DNA from: an uncultured delta proteobacterium
GTDB lineage: Bacteria > Desulfobacterota > Desulfobaccia > Desulfobaccales > 0-14-0-80-60-11
DNA length: 64,000 nt
Assembly (NCBI GenBank): GCA_963705115.1
Contig: CAVPIX010000010.1
Location: forward strand, 1,165,461-1,229,460
Direction of reading: 5' to 3'
Positions 2,099-14,372 of this stretch are shown piece by piece. A model generated the notes under the pieces. The model was not told the origin of the DNA. It did no database searches and saw nothing but the letters and a program-made list of their open reading frames with translations. How positions within the stretch are numbered: the stretch's first letter is position 1; each line of letters starts with the position of its first letter. Position numbers and translations under genes: made by a program.

Positions 2099-3636
2099 TA
2101 AACTCGAGGACATATTCCCCCGAGGAAAATATCAGGGATTATGCGGGTCTGTTGGAATTCAACCTGCGGTTGGCAGAAAAAGGCATGACTCACGGGATGA
2201 AAGCCATCAACGATTTCCACGCTCACCAGTTGGAGCAGGGTTACAAAGCCTGGCAAAATACGCTGTACCATCAGAAGGGCGAAGATATTGCCGCCTTCAT
2301 GGCCAAACAGGCCCGGTTGATGGAGTTGGTGGTCCACGAATATCCCCAGGCCATCAGGGCCATTGAGCCGGAGTACGGCTTCCACTTTGATGACGGTCAT
2401 TACGTCAAGACTGCCGAAACAGACCGCTTCTGCCTCTACCAGGTGCTGCCCCTGGATAAGTCGGTGAAAGTCCGGAAAAAAGGCAAACCCATTCTGATTA
2501 TCCCCCCCTATGTGCTGGGGGCCAACATATTGTCCTTTCTGCCGGGGGAAGGCAAGAGTTTCGTGCACTGCTTCGCCAACCAGGGCATTCCCACGTATAT
2601 CCGCATTGTCAAGGATATCTACGCCAACCCGGCGGTACAGGAAATGACCGGGGAAGAAGACTGCCTGGACACAAAATTTTTCCTGGAGCAGATAAAGGCC
2701 GCCCACGATCGGCCGGTAACTCTGTGCGGTTACTGCCAGGGCGGGTTCACCGTGGCAGTCAATTACCTATCGGGGGAACTGGATGGTTTGGTGGACGCAC
2801 TCATCACCAGCGTCGCCCCCATGGACGGCACCAGGAGTAAAAGCTTGGCGGATTTTCTGGCACAGATTCCCAAACGGTTTGAGGATATCAGCTTTGCCAT
2901 CAAGACCCTCCCCAACGGCAACCGGGTAGTGAACGGCAAGCTCATGAGCTGGGTCTACAAGCTTAAAAGTATGGAGAAAGATAATCCCATTATCGCTTTC
3001 ATCCGGGATCTGAAGCTTTTTGAACGGAATCTGAAGATCAACAAGACGGCGGCGGCCATCAACTACTGGCTGCTGTATGATCAAACCGATCTGCCCCTCG
3101 AGATCTGTAAGATGAGCTTCGATTCCTACACCATCCCGGTTGCCAAAGACGGGACCCTCCCGGTTAGACTTTTCGGGCGCCCCTTGAATTTCAAGCGGGT
3201 TAAGGAACAAGGCATTAAGTGGTTCATCTGTATTGCCGAAAAAGATGATCTGGTGGAGAAGGAATCGGCCCTGGCACCCCTGGACTGGGTAGAGGCGGAA
3301 GTAGCCGTTTTCCCCAAGGGGCATGTAGCCATCGCCACCAGTTGGTCTCTGCCCACCACCGAGTGTTCCCTGGACCGGTGCTTCCTGGATTACCGCGGCC
3401 CGGTGCGCTTCCAGCTGGATTTGGAGGCCGAAGGTGACAAAACCCAGGCGGCTGCTCCTCAGAAAGAGCCAGGGAAAAAAACCCGGTCCGCAGCGGCCTT
3501 GAAAACACTGGCGAGTAAGGCTGAAACTGAGGCGGCGTTGAAGGCGCCAGAGGATAAGACCCAGTCTGCCCCTGCCCAGACAGCGGAAAAGGACAAGGCC
3601 CTGCCTGCCGCGGCCCCGAAGCAGGAGCCCAAATGA
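2095..3636 (+). CDS. phaC: poly(R)-hydroxyalkanoate synthase PhaC (alpha/beta hydrolase) with Ala/Lys/Pro-rich C-terminal tail
   Basis: Lipase-box-like GYCQGG with the catalytic Cys. Context is phaR plus phasins. The last ~70 aa are low complexity. Confidence 0.8.
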   Translation: MINSRTYSPEENIRDYAGLLEFNLRLAEKGMTHGMKAINDFHAHQLEQGYKAWQNTLYHQKGEDIAAFMAKQARLMELVVHEYPQAIRAIEPEYGFHFDDGHYVKTAETDRFCLYQVLPLDKSVKVRKKGKPILIIPPYVLGANILSFLPGEGKSFVHCFANQGIPTYIRIVKDIYANPAVQEMTGEEDCLDTKFFLEQIKAAHDRPVTLCGYCQGGFTVAVNYLSGELDGLVDALITSVAPMDGTRSKSLADFLAQIPKRFEDISFAIKTLPNGNRVVNGKLMSWVYKLKSMEKDNPIIAFIRDLKLFERNLKINKTAAAINYWLLYDQTDLPLEICKMSFDSYTIPVAKDGTLPVRLFGRPLNFKRVKEQGIKWFICIAEKDDLVEKESALAPLDWVEAEVAVFPKGHVAIATSWSLPTTECSLDRCFLDYRGPVRFQLDLEAEGDKTQAAAPQKEPGKKTRSAAALKTLASKAETEAALKAPEDKTQSAPAQTAEKDKALPAAAPKQEPK

Positions 3637-4118
3637 ACCGGCACTTTTTGGAGTTCTGGGGGAAGGCCCTCCTCCAGGCCGCCCACAGTCAGAAGCAGTT
3701 GGAAGATTTAGCCAAATGGTGCCAGCGTGGCATCTTCAGTTTCCAAGATTACACCCAGCTTTTTAAAACTGCTTACGGCCTGGATCAGGTGGGGGAAGAC
3801 AGCCCAGATGAACTCTCCACATGGGAAAAAGCCGAAGAGAACTTTCGGGAGTCTTTCAAGGAGTATTTAAATATCTTTGGAGTGGTCCCCCGGGAGGAGT
3901 ATGCAGCTCTGGTGCGGCAATATGACGAGTTAAGAGCAAAAGTGGCCGAACAGGAAGAAACCATTAAACAACTGCGCTTGTTGCTTGAAGAAAAGGGACT
4001 GGGGCTGGCGGCGACGTCCCTGGAATTCCAGAGACTCATCGAGAAACAAGGAGAGCAGTTTCAGAAACTTATTCAAGGCCTGGGGGAAGCGGTAAAATCC
4101 GAAGACCCTCAAGTCTGA
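3633..4118 (+). CDS. coiled-coil PHA-associated protein, possibly a short PhaE-like synthase subunit
   Basis: ATGA overlap with the phaC stop. Predicted coiled-coil C-terminal half. Assignment rests on context only. Confidence 0.4.
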   Translation: MNRHFLEFWGKALLQAAHSQKQLEDLAKWCQRGIFSFQDYTQLFKTAYGLDQVGEDSPDELSTWEKAEENFRESFKEYLNIFGVVPREEYAALVRQYDELRAKVAEQEETIKQLRLLLEEKGLGLAATSLEFQRLIEKQGEQFQKLIQGLGEAVKSEDPQV

Positions 4119-4989: not shown

Positions 4990-5031
4990 GAGACCCATAA
5001 TCAGAATACCCAAGCACCATCTCATAAAATT

Positions 5032-5069
5032 GACCCCAGTTGGTGAAGCAACTGGGGTCTTTCATTTTT
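5032..5069 (+). terminator. rho-independent terminator after the SDR gene
   Basis: GACCCCAGTTG-gtgaag-CAACTGGGGTC followed by TTTCATTTTT. Confidence 0.75.
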
Positions 5070-5451
5070 CAATCAAAGAGATCATTGGTTCATATAAAAA
5101 ACGAAGAAAACGTCTAGGATTTTTACGTATACCTGCTCTTCCTAGAAACTTATCAACCTCTGGAAAATTCAACCTATTCAGTCCATAACGACACATCAGG
5201 CTCAACATCCGAGAACCCAGCCTGAGAAGGTCCGGGTGGCATATTCTTGGGTCAGCCCCTCCCAGTTCTGATATTCAGATCAAACCTGGATTTTTTCTGG
5301 GTGATGGGATAATTGTCGAAGCTGGCAAGTAAGCTGGAAAAATTGCATTTTATGTGGTATTGCTCAGACCATTAAGTTGGATGGCCCATAGCCCAAAGGC
5401 TTTCTGACACCGCTAAGGCACAGAGTCGGGCTCCAAAAAGGAGAAACGACA

Positions 5452-6138
5452 ATGGACAATACATCCGCCCGGAATCGACTCGTCGCTGTAATCCGCACAC
5501 TCGCCGCAGAGAAGCATATTGAACTGGAACGGCTTAAAAAGGAACATAGCGGCCTCGCTCGTTCAGACTTCATCTGGCACTACCTCTTGGTAAGCTTCTC
5601 AACAATGGGGCGGGCGTCTGGGTGGCATGGGCTGATCGGCAACAAGAACAACTACCAACGTGTTACCTACAATGTTCTCGCCGCTCTGTCTCCGGAAGCT
5701 CGCAGATCACAGGTAAGACAGGTGTGCAAAGTTGCGGGGATTCGCATGCCGGATAAGAAAGCGGATTACATTCTCGGCTGTTTTGATTATATCAAGCAGC
5801 TCGGTGGGCCGGAGACCACAAAGGCTAAGCTGCTTGCTCAACCGGGCCGAGACGCCAAGATTCGCTTCCTCCAAACTTTCCCCGGTATTGGGCCAAAATA
5901 TGCCCGAAACATAATGATGGACGTTTATCACGAGGACTTTCGGAATAGTATCGCCCTCGATGTTCGTATCAAGGCCATCTCTGACGCCCTCGGTCTGTCG
6001 TTTTCATCTTATGCCGAGCACGAGCAGTTCTACCTCAACGTAGCTCGCAATGCCGGGATCAACGGTTGGGAGTTAGACCGACTGTTGTTCAATTTTCGCG
6101 CTGAGGTGGAGGCGAGCCTTGGGGTTAGAAGAGTATGA
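5452..6138 (+). CDS. HhH-GPD-like (Ogg2/EndoIII-like) DNA glycosylase family protein
   Basis: FPGIGPKYARNIMMDV helix-hairpin-helix followed by IALDVRI (Asp in the position of the catalytic Asp of HhH-GPD enzymes). GGAG RBS. Confidence 0.5.
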   Translation: MDNTSARNRLVAVIRTLAAEKHIELERLKKEHSGLARSDFIWHYLLVSFSTMGRASGWHGLIGNKNNYQRVTYNVLAALSPEARRSQVRQVCKVAGIRMPDKKADYILGCFDYIKQLGGPETTKAKLLAQPGRDAKIRFLQTFPGIGPKYARNIMMDVYHEDFRNSIALDVRIKAISDALGLSFSSYAEHEQFYLNVARNAGINGWELDRLLFNFRAEVEASLGVRRV

Positions 6139-6217
6139 ATGGCCTTAGTGCGTGAAAGAACACAAACATCGATTTTAGACAAGCTCAGCCAGGACCGATG
6201 TATAATTTTGGTTAACA

Positions 6218-7810
6218 ATGAAAAATGGCAAAGACATGAAGAGCCTAATAAATAAATATATTTCTTTGGCCAAAGAAAGCCTCATTCAGCGGGAAGATAC
6301 CTCGACCAACAGAATATCTCTTTTAAAAAGCTGGAAAGATCGATTGCTTGAGAAAGTCGAATACATAGAGTCACATCAAATTTTTGAAGATTTGATTTTT
6401 AGAACTATAGAAGTTTATAGAGATAATTTCTTTAAAGATAATTATCGGGATATTCGGGGTGGGCATATTGAAGATATAACTGCCGAAGATCGTTTACTTG
6501 AAAATGTCGAATATATAGAGTCACATCAAATTGTTACAGATATGATTTCCGGAACTATAGAACTTTATCGGGAAATCCGCGGTGGGCATGTGGAGGATGT
6601 AACCGCCGATTGGGAGATCCTGGTGAAAACTTTTTTTCGTCGTTCCGGATTCTATATTAAGCTTTCCAAGGATGAACCAATTGATATTGATTTGGTTTGT
6701 CATCAATATGATGAAGCATTTACAGCCAAGGAGGTGCCGGTTAGATATTTGGCACCTTTAGAATTTGTTAACTTTTATGATGTTGACAGGCTTAATTTTC
6801 CTTCTTTTTCAATCAGGAGATTTTCTCCACAGGAATTATCAGAGGTAATTAATAATACTGTTAATGAAGTATTTTATCCTGATGCAATTTGGGATTTTGA
6901 TAAATTATCGATGTTCTGGTTTATTGATGTCGTAATTCCTAAAGTAAATACGAACAAATTACTACAGACTAATGATTATTTCGCATACTTCGGAAATTAC
7001 AGGCATGAATCTGACAATTTAGACCCGATTAAAGATGTATTAAAGATATTATCTTTGTTTGATTGGAATTCGATACATAACGATGGCAATTGTCAAGGGT
7101 TTAATGTCCCGTTTGTCAGCCAAGTAGATGAATATTTTCTGGCCTATCCTGATTCATTTCCAATTGGAAAAAAATTAGAAATGGCAAATAGTTACGAGGA
7201 TTTTGACGATGATAATATGCACTACTACCATCATAAAATAATTGGTCGAGAACCTCTTATTTTATGCCAATTAGACGAAAAAAATGTTAACCGATTTATT
7301 GAATTTGTTAGTGTCGTGGACAATCAATTTTCTGACATATGTAAGAAGTGGCCCTTTTATAATAATGCTTTAGAATTTATACTAAAAGCTTTTTTTCATG
7401 ACGACTTCTACAGGCCGATTGACCAATTATTATGGAATATTGTTGCAATAGAAGCTCTATTGGGTGATAAAGGGGAAGGGCTAACTAATAGGTTAGCAGC
7501 TCGGTTGAGTAGAATATTAGCCAAATCTGATGATGTTCGAGATTATATTAAAAAAGAATTTAAGATAATTTATAATTTAAGATGTAACCTTATTCACGGT
7601 AGCTCGTGGGATGAGAAATTAGATAGGAAATATCTTTTTTTAAGTAGGAACTTGGCAAGAAAGGCCAGTATGAAGTTCTTCTATTTATTTGCTTACATTT
7701 CTACATCAGGTCAATTTAATCCAAAAAAACACTCCAGGAAAGAAATATTGTCCTTTATTGATAGTGATCTGATATTCGACGAGAATGGACTGGAAAATAT
7801 ACTTCGTTAA
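6218..7810 (+). CDS. hypothetical protein with C-terminal HEPN-like (Rx4H) domain
   Basis: Strongly AT-rich ORF. C-terminus has LLWNIVAIEALLG...IIYNLRCNLIHGS, an Rx4H motif in a helical context as in Apea/Abi-type HEPN RNases. N-terminus holds a 50-aa tandem repeat. Confidence 0.55.
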   Translation: MKNGKDMKSLINKYISLAKESLIQREDTSTNRISLLKSWKDRLLEKVEYIESHQIFEDLIFRTIEVYRDNFFKDNYRDIRGGHIEDITAEDRLLENVEYIESHQIVTDMISGTIELYREIRGGHVEDVTADWEILVKTFFRRSGFYIKLSKDEPIDIDLVCHQYDEAFTAKEVPVRYLAPLEFVNFYDVDRLNFPSFSIRRFSPQELSEVINNTVNEVFYPDAIWDFDKLSMFWFIDVVIPKVNTNKLLQTNDYFAYFGNYRHESDNLDPIKDVLKILSLFDWNSIHNDGNCQGFNVPFVSQVDEYFLAYPDSFPIGKKLEMANSYEDFDDDNMHYYHHKIIGREPLILCQLDEKNVNRFIEFVSVVDNQFSDICKKWPFYNNALEFILKAFFHDDFYRPIDQLLWNIVAIEALLGDKGEGLTNRLAARLSRILAKSDDVRDYIKKEFKIIYNLRCNLIHGSSWDEKLDRKYLFLSRNLARKASMKFFYLFAYISTSGQFNPKKHSRKEILSFIDSDLIFDENGLENILR

Positions 7811-8280
7811 ATTAGGGCCATAGAGCGGGAAAGAGGTGATAATCGCGGTATTAGCATTACTCGTTTTAACTCATGCCCAAGCTGAGCTTCAGAATGAGAA
7901 AATTCAAAAATCGGATCACTGCTCTATCTCCGCAATGCGCCACCCAGCAGTTGGTGTTCTGATATCCTCACAATATCCAGCAAAATATATCTCGGGGGAG
8001 TAGGAGCCGCCCTCGCTTTGACTCGAAAAGGACCGGCCGCCGGGACGGCGTCAAAAGAAAACAAGATTATAGATTTTGTTTCCTTTTCTCCGGGCCTGAA
8101 AAACCCTCTATAATTTATGAAGGACCCTAATATTCAGCCGCCCTTGGGTGACTTGGGGTCCTGTTTTGCGGGGACGCAATACCTTGCCCCTATCAACAAT
8201 AGAAAAAAACTAATTAATATAGCAGAGTTATCTAAACAGCAGGCTTTTATTTAGGCATTTCATTTGTTTGGCGAGCGCCC

Positions 8281-8682
8281 CTAATCTTCATCGCCGGTGA
8301 GATCGCCGCTTGGCCCCATCCCCGGCCCCATACCCTCTCCCATCTCCCCGCTTGCCATGGCTTCCTCGATCATCTGGTCGATATCCCCGACATCGTCCTC
8401 CCCCATGGCTTCCTTGAGGTGGGGACCCATCTGGCGCATCATGCGGGCCATGCTGGCGGGGTCGTTTTCGTCCAGGTCGGCCAGGCCGCCCCAGCGGTGG
8501 GGGTCGGCCAGGCGCTCCATCCTGGTTTCTTCCGAGAGGCGGACTCGCACTCTGGAGAGCAGCCGCTCCATCTCCGTGCCGCCGCACCGGGGACACACCG
8601 GGGTAAAGGGCGCACTCAGACTCAGGATGAGAAACTCAGACACTTTCCGGCAGGAGGCACAGCGATATTCGTAGATGGGCAT
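8281..8682 (-). CDS. FmdB-family zinc-ribbon protein
   Basis: MPIYEYRCxxC...CPRCG (CxxC-CxxC) N-terminus with an acidic tail. Confidence 0.8.
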   Translation of the reverse strand: MPIYEYRCASCRKVSEFLILSLSAPFTPVCPRCGGTEMERLLSRVRVRLSEETRMERLADPHRWGGLADLDENDPASMARMMRQMGPHLKEAMGEDDVGDIDQMIEEAMASGEMGEGMGPGMGPSGDLTGDED

Positions 8683-12683: not shown

Positions 12684-14372
12684 TTATGACATTCCGAGCC
12701 TATACGGATCTCTAATCCACTGAGCGATATTTTTTATGAAATCCCAGACATCGCCTTGCCCTGGCTTAACATAATTCCCAGAATCTGGGTCACTTCCCAT
12801 TTTCTCAAAAATATCGACTAGCCATTCAGGCCCATGTCCTTTGGCGTTAAGGCTTTTCAACCATGCCTCGAGCTCTCCATTTGGAACTACAAAAATACCA
12901 TATTTTGCTAAGCTGGATAAAAGACTTAAAACTATCTCATTTTCTTTGGCATCTAATTTATTGATTCCCTCTTTCTTTGGATTTAGACCTTTCTTCTCAA
13001 AGAGCTTATAGCTCTCTCCTCGGAGAGTACCCCATGTATTTATGAGTTCTTGTGGAACATTACAATTTTTAAGCAAATTCTTAAGCTCATCACCCTTTTT
13101 AATTATATCAAGGTCAACTATTGCAGCGGCAGATATTCCCATTTCTCTTAGTGGTCCAACGATATTTTTTATCGTCTGTTTATTTTGGGCATTTAAAAAA
13201 ATACAATTATCTAAACCACCTTTTTGGAAAGAAAGTAGTCTCCCATTAATTTCTTGGTAGAAGACTCTATCAGTATCAGCCTCGCAAATTATGGCGCTTT
13301 CATGAAATAAGGCGCTCAGTACGCCACTAGAACGCATCAATGGGTCTCTCATTATCAATTGAAGTTTTTCTGACGAAAGAAGGCGAGCAGTTGCAATTCC
13401 ACCGGAGTATGTCAATCTAATAATATTGACGGGCTTCCCTGATTGAACACATCCCATTAAAAAATCTGAACTGTGAGTTGCTGCAAATACATTAGCCTTC
13501 CTCTCAGTAGCAATTCTGGCAAGATAATTTCCCAGTTTCCTAATTAAAGGTGGGTGTAAAAATGCTTCTGGCTCATCAATCAAAATAATTTTAAAATCAG
13601 AACTCAATAGAGCAGATATTATTCCTGTGTAAGCTTTTATCCCGTCACTCAATTCAGCAATCTCAAAAGCATTCGCATGAAAAGCTCGTGCTCTCTCATC
13701 TAATGCTTGTTCTTCAAGTGAATCTGACGGTTCCTGCAGTGACATTCTTATACGAAATTTGTTCATTCCTGTTGGATCTATTGTAAAATATAATCCAAAG
13801 GCATCCGCTGTAATATTACGAATAGTTATTCTTGATTCTTCATCTTTAAATAAAGACATCAAGTGACTGGTAGATTCTCTTTGTAAATCACCAGATGGCC
13901 TATCATCAGTAAGCGAAAACCGTGTTCTGCCATCAAGTCTTATTGTAAATAAATTAATGAGATTACTACATATGACTCCTAATAAATTGCTATTAAGATT
14001 TTTATTATATTCTTCTACAAGACGTAACAAATCATTTAAAGGAATCTCATGTCTATCAATCCTACCTTCTATTAACTGTATTTTGCCAATTAAGATATTT
14101 CCTTCCCTAATATTTTCATTAGGCAATGGCAGAAGAGATTTTGATAAAAGTATTTCTCTGACTTTATCCTTATTTGGCAAAATATAATCAATATTATCAA
14201 TTATCTTTCTATTTTCTACGGGACCCATTCTTGAAAAGGTCTCGATTTCTCGTAAAATAAGACTTTTCCCTGAATTATTAGGACCAACAAAAACTGTTAC
14301 TCCTCCAGGTTTAAACGCAAGAGGTTGGGAACTTAATTGCTGGCCAAATTTTAATTTAATCTCGTCAATCAT
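12684..14372 (-). CDS. ABC-type ATPase fused to a Toprim/DUF4435-like nuclease domain (OLD-family / GajA / fused AriA-AriB-like)
   Basis: Walker A GPNNSGKS, signature-like LSDGIK, Walker B ILIDEPEAFLHP, ATHS. C-terminal part has CEADTD, IVDLDII (DxD) and VVPNGELEAWL. Strongly AT-rich versus its flanks. Confidence 0.6.
   Translation of the reverse strand: MIDEIKLKFGQQLSSQPLAFKPGGVTVFVGPNNSGKSLILREIETFSRMGPVENRKIIDNIDYILPNKDKVREILLSKSLLPLPNENIREGNILIGKIQLIEGRIDRHEIPLNDLLRLVEEYNKNLNSNLLGVICSNLINLFTIRLDGRTRFSLTDDRPSGDLQRESTSHLMSLFKDEESRITIRNITADAFGLYFTIDPTGMNKFRIRMSLQEPSDSLEEQALDERARAFHANAFEIAELSDGIKAYTGIISALLSSDFKIILIDEPEAFLHPPLIRKLGNYLARIATERKANVFAATHSSDFLMGCVQSGKPVNIIRLTYSGGIATARLLSSEKLQLIMRDPLMRSSGVLSALFHESAIICEADTDRVFYQEINGRLLSFQKGGLDNCIFLNAQNKQTIKNIVGPLREMGISAAAIVDLDIIKKGDELKNLLKNCNVPQELINTWGTLRGESYKLFEKKGLNPKKEGINKLDAKENEIVLSLLSSLAKYGIFVVPNGELEAWLKSLNAKGHGPEWLVDIFEKMGSDPDSGNYVKPGQGDVWDFIKNIAQWIRDPYRLGMS

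Follow-up and report, generated by a model that had tools for sequence, protein, structure and literature searches.

Do two adjacent genes of low guanine-plus-cytosine (GC) content in an uncultured delta proteobacterium form a dedicated anti-phage machine, or are they separate defence-type genes that have been inherited together? The question arises within a 64,000-nucleotide (nt) stretch of GenBank assembly GCA_963705115.1 (contig CAVPIX010000010.1, positions 1,165,461 to 1,229,460 of the forward strand), hereafter the window, whose own numbering is used throughout. The host belongs to the Desulfobaccales: its ProB protein clusters, at 90% identity or more, with a protein bearing that name. 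Two open reading frames (ORFs) lie there on the plus strand, one at 5452-6138 encoding 228 amino acids (aa) and the other at 6218-7810 encoding 530 aa, separated by 79 nt, just as they had been laid out in an original prediction made from the letters of the DNA alone; a gene caller places the start of the second ORF six codons downstream, which gives 524 aa. That prediction took the first product for a DNA glycosylase and the second for a large protein ending in a HEPN RNase motif, and saw in their pairing a possible defence locus. Its observations are borne out, the positions of the quoted motifs included, and its interpretation is upheld in part. The reading we favour, to which we give about half of our confidence, is that these are two stand-alone defence-type genes, encoding a Dag-like glycosylase and an ApeA-style RNase, that are co-inherited in a narrow clade and do not form an obligatory two-component machine.

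A mobile cassette and two families that occur apart

Positions 5262-7936 of the window are a horizontally acquired 2.7-kb cassette of foreign DNA lying downstream of a PHA-synthase/SDR operon. The gene pair was found in three further contigs (L001, the P0003 contig and L145), with different flanks each time. L001 encodes a glycosylase 90% and a big protein 69% identical to those of the window, and its pair has CNNM/CorC genes on one side and a LarC-type gene on the other; genes for a D12 methylase and a SacI-type endonuclease are found two genes upstream. In the P0003 contig (88% and 65% identity, respectively) the pair lies directly 3' of an Mrr-type gene, and in L145 (glycosylase 86% identical) a gene for a 249-aa tyrosine recombinase (3122-3871 of that contig) is located 430 nt upstream. 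A 249-aa integrase is also carried by the P0004 contig, from a distant relative. DNA homology between the window and L001 extends from ∼5262 to ∼7936 and ends abruptly against unrelated flanks, and no terminal repeats were found at its ends. Between the same two loci, synonymous divergence (dS) is 0.42 for the glycosylase gene and 0.48 for the big gene; this equality implies that the two have been together since their common ancestor and travel as a cassette. The corresponding ratios of nonsynonymous to synonymous divergence (dN/dS), 0.12 and 0.31, indicate that both genes are under purifying selection and functional. The HEPN gene of L145 (5060-6570) has six 1-nt deletions relative to L001 beside an intact glycosylase gene, and these are either errors of long-read assembly or marks of a decaying gene.

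Comparison with relatives that share the PHA-synthase/SDR operon (L152-L155, 87-91% nucleotide identity) places the left junction. These relatives carry neither gene downstream of the SDR gene and cease to match the window at 5082-5139, from which we conclude that the cassette is an insertion at a variable spot; the synteny comparison called for by the original prediction thus identifies the islet as foreign and absent from the same locus in its operon relatives. What follows the SDR terminator is different in each of the relatives examined, with PAS-domain proteins in L152 and other genes in L153, and this variability marks the spot as a recombination or insertion hotspot. From the opposite side no empty-site comparison was available, as no close relative of the FmdB-type protein is on record.

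The internal layout of the cassette is conserved beyond its two genes. Between 5083 and 5261 homology to the operon relatives has ended and homology to the cassette has not yet begun (GC 0.43-0.48), and the match to L001 starts at ∼5262-5266. The leader (5262-5451, plus strand) aligns with L001 7082-7237 and, from 5382 on, also with L145; it includes a 30-nt segment common to the window and L145 and missing from L001, and it is probably where the glycosylase gene has its promoter and ribosome-binding site. The intergenic spacer (6139-6217, plus strand) falls inside an unbroken alignment to L001 at 84% identity, and L001 and the P0003 contig have spacers of 76 and 100 nt, respectively. Beyond the second gene a conserved 3' tail (7811-7936, plus strand) follows L001 to ∼7936 and contains a block at ∼7866-7903 present in the window, L001 and L145, whereas the remaining DNA before the FmdB-type gene (7937-8280) has no match in L001 or L145 and none in Rfam. 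The whole interval 7811-8280 had been described as noncoding, which holds insofar as it has no credible ORF (the longest noted has 55 codons) and no Rfam match, but the cassette takes in the first ∼125 nt of it, up to ∼7936.

The locus is bounded by the SDR-gene terminator (hairpin at 5032-5059) and by the FmdB-type zinc-ribbon gene (8281-8682, minus strand), and composition falls between them as originally reported, though in two steps. GC is ∼0.60 up to 5000 and again beyond 8300, 0.43-0.48 at 5000-5400, 0.52 across the glycosylase gene, 0.33 (range 0.31-0.37) across the big gene and 0.39-0.50 at 7600-8300, compared with flanks of ∼60%; at third codon positions it is 0.59, 0.30 and 0.75 for the glycosylase, big and SDR genes, respectively. 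The two-stepped drop is real, the glycosylase gene being moderately low and the big gene very low in GC. Family-wide, 28 of 34 big-gene loci have the gene at lower GC than its flanks (median difference -4.9 points, Wilcoxon p 2.5e-6), as do 50 of 54 loci for the glycosylase gene (median -4.2 points, p 6e-9). Scanning the islet for Rfam families, repeats, promoters and terminators revealed no att-like repeat, RNA gene or target-site duplication, and no integrase, tRNA-type attachment (att) site or flanking repeat was found within the window. The earlier statement that integrase and att sites are absent therefore stands for the window itself, but not for the related L145, with its tyrosine recombinase beside the pair.

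When the survey is widened from the cassette to the families, the two genes part company. None of the 73 glycosylase loci recovered from 185,579 species genomes by a pattern-limited scan has the HEPN gene, and by tblastn and profile search none of 64 metagenome loci of the HEPN gene has the glycosylase (the metagenome scan for the HEPN family was run with 15 sequences). Outside the window the pair turned up in L001, the P0003 contig and L145 and nowhere else, so the co-occurrence check across genomes did not bear out the expectation behind the pairing. Distant HEPN relatives (P0005, P0006) are solo. A glycosylase 86% identical to that of the window (P0015) is without the HEPN gene and lies 3' of an RE_NgoFVII-type endonuclease gene, in an island with type III restriction-modification genes and BrnT and ParE toxin-antitoxin pairs. 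Across the 73 and 64 loci, no neighbouring gene recurs beside either family. Because the families normally occur apart, a dedicated two-gene system is unsupported, and the idea that the pairing defines a system gives way to four contigs in one narrow clade with no conserved partner elsewhere. The pair was rightly said to correspond to no named system; scans of both proteins against Pfam, NCBIfam and PADLOC gave no match above cut-off.

The genomic company kept by each family bears on its possible role. The nearest relatives of the glycosylase adjoin RE_NgoFVII, type III restriction-modification, BrnT/ParE toxin-antitoxin, Mrr or integrase genes, and across the 73 genomes its neighbours are mostly housekeeping genes. 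Neighbours of the HEPN family include LmuB, AbiEii, MADS, type IIG restriction-modification, Mokosh, PD-T4-6, integrases and IS200-type transposases, and a member on a Pantoea conjugative plasmid has a RES-domain gene to one side and a retron-type HNH gene to the other. These defence-gene neighbours are suggestive of a defence role for the HEPN family; relatives of the HEPN domain on phage-plasmids, and an OLD-family nuclease gene in a second low-GC islet of the window, point the same way. Neither a scan of viral contigs nor a tblastn search of phages returned a member of either family.

Two further arrangements were noted around the glycosylase gene. In three loci (L055, L073 and L078) it is located between the E1 alpha and E1 beta genes of a 2-oxoacid dehydrogenase operon, and in a fourth (L014) upstream of all three genes of that operon; these four are one Rubrobacterales and three Acidobacteriota metagenome-assembled genomes. 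In the Verrucomicrobiota loci L028, L036, L038 and L067 a conserved upstream pair, a LysR-type regulator and an AAA-type ATPase of ∼600 aa, lies by the glycosylase gene.

Two uncurated protein families

The glycosylase gene (5452-6138, plus strand) encodes a helix-hairpin-helix (HhH) motif, FPGIGPKYARNIMMDV, at residues 143-158 (5878-5925), containing Lys149 (5896-5898) and followed downstream by Asp170 (5959-5961). Library support for the 228-aa protein is slight: Pfam, NCBIfam and PADLOC scans placed no model above its threshold, giving weak HhH matches and no Pfam HhH-GPD match, and a colinear match to NF002305 (“N-glycosylase/DNA lyase”) scored 14.2 bits (E 0.022) where the model's cut-off is 183. 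Sequence searches of the PDB with the single protein and with a family profile returned no glycosylase. A k-mer-seeded search recovered 626 relatives, 60-94% identical, from Planctomycetota, Verrucomicrobiota, Acidobacteriota, Gammaproteobacteria, Bacteroidota and one Methanothrix genome; JGI annotates some of these relatives as “thermostable 8-oxoguanine DNA glycosylase” or as “endonuclease III”. Residues G145, I146, G147, K149 and D170 are invariant in 46 relatives of 61-94% identity. The N- and C-terminal extensions of longer homologs have no Pfam domain.

An AlphaFold2 model of the 228-aa protein has a mean predicted local distance difference test score (pLDDT) of 92 and a predicted template modelling score (pTM) of 0.85. 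Its top Foldseek matches in the PDB are full-length and to Ogg2 enzymes, namely Tm1821, MjOgg and SsOgg (template modelling score, TM, 0.61-0.75; probability 1.0), followed by EndoIII, OGG1 and AGOG, an outcome in line with the assignment to Ogg2/EndoIII-type glycosylases and with the structural check proposed for it. Because the model is confident, the Ogg2 enzymes are its best matches and the motif residues are invariant, we accept the protein as an HhH-GPD glycosylase of predicted Ogg2-like fold. Lys-then-Asp order marks the bifunctional glycosylase/lyases of the HhH-GPD superfamily (EndoIII, OGG1, Ogg2), and by this analogy we predict that the protein is a bifunctional glycosylase/apurinic-apyrimidinic (AP) lyase; the catalytic assignment of K149 and D170 follows the known order of motifs and not a residue-level structural alignment. 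Membership in the curated Ogg2 sequence family was rejected, given an NF002305 score far under cut-off and the absence of a Pfam HhH-GPD match.

The second gene (6218-7810, plus strand) encodes LLWNIVAIEALLG at residues 404-416 and IIYNLRCNLIHGS at residues 450-462, including Glu412 (7451-7453) and the motif R455-x4-H460 (7580-7597), in a HEPN-type domain spanning nt 7277-7762. A word-indexed search found six relatives only, and an exhaustive HMMER search with a profile of those six found at least 2,588 cluster representatives (50% identity) at E<=0.001, 323 of them at E<=1e-30. Among the best 150 matches listed, nearly all are ∼480-510 aa and align end to end. By these profile matches the 530-aa protein is a member of a large family with a conserved full-length architecture of ∼500 aa, and the description of its C-terminus as the sole recognisable part undersells a layout conserved across thousands of relatives. 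The family has no Pfam, NCBIfam or PADLOC match above cut-off, whether the full protein, the isolated C-terminal domain or 71 members are scanned, and PDB sequence searches with the single protein and a profile yielded nothing relevant. The recurrent weak library matches were HEPN_Apea of Pfam (2 of 71 members, E 0.015) and CARF_HEPN of PADLOC (4 of 71, E 0.02), and no others.

Conservation in this family is concentrated where a HEPN active site is expected. An alignment of 71 sequences with a mean column identity of 26% has four invariant columns only, Y146, R429, R455 and H460, and E412, G416, G461, R477 and R481 are near-invariant; the family consensus reads EQLLWHIT..EALLGE ... LY..R[SC].LVHG. 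AlphaFold2 predicts a helical N-terminal region (residues 1-170), an alpha/beta middle domain (∼171-350) and a C-terminal HEPN-type bundle (∼354-515), with a pLDDT of 66 overall, mostly 84-94 over residues 351-500 (three blocks at 64-79) and 66-70 over 501-520. Predicted helices occupy 379-392, 400-415 (bearing E412), an inserted 422-434, 438-459, which ends at R455 with H460 in the following loop, and 470-497. Published HEPN domains have a four-helix up-down core, with the motif at the end of helix 3 running into a loop and an acidic residue in helix 2, and frequently carry an insert between helices 2 and 3 (PMC3710099). The predicted C-terminal helices match this layout, as a check of topology on a prediction and not a superposition.

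Independent sequence links point the same way. A tblastn search against plasmids matched the C-terminus of a ∼400-aa RefSeq “HEPN domain-containing protein” on Klebsiella and Cronobacter phage-plasmids, and hhalign aligned the family profile with one such RefSeq entry (WP_047719672) at 97.3% probability (E 1.6e-11) across the Glu...R-x4-H region. On the invariance of R455 and H460 in 71 members, the fit of the predicted helices and this profile match at 97%, we take the C-terminal domain for a HEPN domain whose putative catalytic motif is intact, as first proposed. The N-terminal and middle domains are without detectable relatives. The phage-plasmid protein was observed at L149 3257-4444 and L150 3077-4285, homologous in its HEPN domain and different in its N-terminus, and its gene sits between a ParA/MipZ-type gene and tail-fibre genes.

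Within its N-terminal helical region the big gene of the window carries an in-frame tandem duplication of ∼41 codons (6336-6609, plus strand), visible as direct repeats 6336-6423/6486-6573 (83% identical) and 6433-6486/6556-6609 (78%). P0003 lacks the extra copy and P0002 has part of it, and the corresponding region of the window protein is modelled at pLDDT <35. Since the copies are only 78-83% identical, the duplication is not recent.

Known systems and rival explanations

The closest known parallels to the two proteins are both stand-alone defence proteins. ApeA was reportedly described as a HEPN single-protein anti-phage system by Gao and colleagues in 2020. The 530-aa protein resembles it in being stand-alone with no partner gene, in belonging to a ∼500-600-aa class with an N-terminal helical region, an alpha/beta middle (Mid) domain and a C-terminal HEPN domain, in its motif (IY..R.NLIH here and IYRTRNLIVH in Ec2ApeA, with R455 falling on the catalytic R502) and in a similar QLL...AIE.L helix upstream of it. 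It differs in that 43 residues separate Glu from Arg, versus ∼131 in ApeA, which has large insertions there. Built of an N-terminal helical, a Mid and a HEPN domain, ApeA cleaves tRNAs in the anticodon loop once 5'-phosphorylated deoxydinucleotides have activated it (bioRxiv 10.64898/2026.01.26.701840). Ec1ApeA and Ec2ApeA were taken from Escherichia coli genomes and their homologs collected into a 28-sequence alignment; against the two sequences singly hhalign gave a probability of <1%, PADLOC gave no ApeA match, and no link was found between the WP_047719672-type plasmid protein and ApeA. As the profile comparison was non-significant, membership of the 530-aa protein in ApeA is not demonstrable and the likeness is one of layout.

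For the 228-aa protein the parallel is with Dag1, Dag2 and their relatives, stand-alone defence glycosylases of the HhH superfamily that use a Lys/Asp pair to destroy 7-deazaguanine-modified phage DNA and are found in Vibrio integron cassettes (bioRxiv 10.1101/2025.10.29.685425). The likeness is one of description: a small, unannotated, single-gene HhH-fold glycosylase, apparently on mobile DNA, with a Lys/Asp pair and predicted bifunctional activity. Unlike the Dags, it is accompanied by no integron features that we could see. The lone UDG-family glycosylase Brig1 acts on modified bases in anti-phage defence (PMC11078745) and is similar in concept, a lone defence glycosylase, but belongs to the UDG fold superfamily and not to HhH-GPD. 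The Ogg2 enzymes (Tm1821, 3n0u; MjOgg, 3fhf/3knt; SsOgg, 3fhg) are the best full-length structural matches of the 228-aa protein, which has the HhH, Lys and Asp in the expected order; it is only 14-16% identical to them, has a patchy, mobile distribution and separates Lys from Asp by 21 residues. The usual spacing, as in EndoIII and MjOgg, is ∼18.

A further comparison is with HEPN-MNT toxin-antitoxin modules and the HEPN anticodon nucleases PrrC/RloC, metal-independent R-x4-6-H RNases of conflict systems often encoded near restriction genes (PMC3710099). The 530-aa protein is much larger, has its own N-terminal domains and lacks an MNT, ABC-ATPase or other conserved partner or fusion. A HEPN-MNT module was rejected as there is no recurrent neighbour and the upstream gene encodes the glycosylase.

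If the two genes are stand-alone defence genes, their likely modes of action can be outlined by analogy. The glycosylase would, as elsewhere in its superfamily, flip a base out of duplex DNA and cleave the glycosidic bond; Lys149 would act as the nucleophile, forming a Schiff base that leads to nicking by beta-lyase chemistry, with Asp170 as the activating residue. Its substrate may be a noncanonical, phage-type base, an idea prompted by the mobility of the gene and by the restriction and toxin-antitoxin neighbours of its closest relatives. The 530-aa protein is most likely, judging from ApeA-like precedents, an auto-inhibited single-protein abortive-infection RNase, in which detection of an infection cue would fall to the N-terminal and middle domains, and the HEPN domains would dimerise into a composite R-x4-H site, halting growth by cleavage of RNA (tRNA or mRNA).

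Several observations weigh against the stand-alone defence reading. Ordinary metabolic genes make up most neighbours of both families, the defence genes among them being individual instances. At 60-90% identity across phyla the glycosylase family is unusually conserved for a defence gene, and a repair enzyme acting on one fixed substrate would account for this just as well. Foldseek of the full-length HEPN-protein model, the second structural check that had been proposed, found nothing significant in the PDB or BFVD, and hhalign of the family profile against the 28-sequence ApeA alignment gave a probability of 1.8%, with the R-x4-H stretch alone aligned. Finally, the two genes keep a tight, conserved spacing and equal synonymous divergence across four contexts, which would fit a functional pair too.

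This last point also belongs to the case for a true two-component system, in which the glycosylase/AP lyase would recognise invading DNA that is modified or damaged and its products (nicked DNA, small deoxynucleotide fragments or an excised base) would turn on the HEPN RNase by way of the N-terminal and middle domains, paralleling ApeA. Order, strand and a short spacer (76-100 nt) are kept in four unrelated contexts, the leader, spacer and tail are conserved along with the pair, equal dS places the genes together since their common ancestor, and ApeA provides the precedent of an N-helical/Mid/HEPN protein activated by products of DNA breakdown. We nevertheless consider such a system unlikely. 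The pairing is limited to glycosylases at least 86% identical to that of the window, and P0015, itself at 86%, does without the HEPN gene; the partner is absent from all 73 and all 64 loci and from the HEPN relatives P0005 and P0006; GC contents of 52% and 33% indicate separate origins; and in L145 the HEPN gene has its six 1-nt deletions while the glycosylase gene is intact. Functional coupling of the two proteins in any form, for which the basis is adjacency in four closely related cassettes, falls somewhere between unlikely and improbable. The more specific scheme seems to us improbable: the glycosylase/AP lyase would attack modified or invading DNA, and the small products set free (free base, unsaturated sugar-phosphate ends or short deoxynucleotides) would release the HEPN protein's RNase by docking on its N-terminal and middle domains.

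A different arrangement would make the glycosylase an accessory repair enzyme for oxidised or deaminated bases, possibly offsetting damage tied to neighbouring methylation systems, and the HEPN gene an unrelated selfish toxin or addiction gene brought beside it by a shared hotspot. The fold is closest to 8-oxoguanine glycosylases, cross-phylum conservation is very high with a dN/dS of 0.12, neighbours are mostly housekeeping genes (including those of the Acidobacteria 2-oxoacid dehydrogenase operon within which the gene is inserted), and the region downstream of the SDR gene is variable among relatives. Yet a gene that is rare and patchy (73 loci) and below its hosts in GC in 50 of 54 cases is unlike a core repair gene, its closest relatives lie amid restriction and toxin-antitoxin genes, the cassette moved as one unit and not as two independent insertions, and the HEPN gene has no antitoxin-like partner; we regard this explanation as rather unlikely. 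Very improbable, in our judgement, is a protein with some other role, for instance in regulation or scaffolding, whose C-terminal domain forms a helical bundle in which R-x4-H is noncatalytic or there by chance. The lack of a significant structural match to solved HEPN domains (weak Foldseek matches to 2hsb and 4nqf have E values of 5-8 only), the lack of a curated HEPN model above cut-off and the residue following Arg, which is Cys or Ser here versus Asn, Asp or His in typical HEPN domains (PMC3710099), would fit such a protein. Against it stand the invariance of Arg and His in 71 diverse members with four invariant columns in all, the helix topology and upstream Glu, both as in the description of HEPN domains, and the significant profile match to an annotated HEPN protein.

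Other features of the window and significance

Two other low-GC features of the window were noted. At 12684-14372 (minus strand) a second islet (GC ∼0.30-0.38) consists of a single gene for a 562-aa OLD-family protein (AAA_21/ABC ATPase and OLD-like TOPRIM) that separates proB from a proA-like aldehyde dehydrogenase gene, so that this genome has a further solo insertion of defence type. Two adjacent segments of ∼290 nt each (1120-1407 and 1423-1708), upstream of the PHA synthase gene, both match both of two neighbouring small genes of L152, which indicates that the low-GC stretch 1120-1708 is a tandem pair of small paralogous genes.

Each gene of the cassette represents a new or uncurated family of a known kind, and their pairing is a lineage-restricted variant. 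The HEPN family is large (at least 2,588 clusters at 50% identity) and lies outside the curated libraries Pfam, NCBIfam and PADLOC, with N-terminal and middle domains that match no recognised fold; if its members are abortive-infection RNases, their sensor domain would be a new input module for HEPN effectors. The analysis also delimits a rare, very well-conserved and horizontally moving family of Ogg2-like glycosylases that is a candidate addition to the defence glycosylases. The joining of both genes in one lineage offers a handle for asking whether glycosylase products trigger the HEPN RNase, and such a coupling, if true, would wire DNA-level sensing to an abortive RNA-level response and extend the ApeA principle to a self-made signal.

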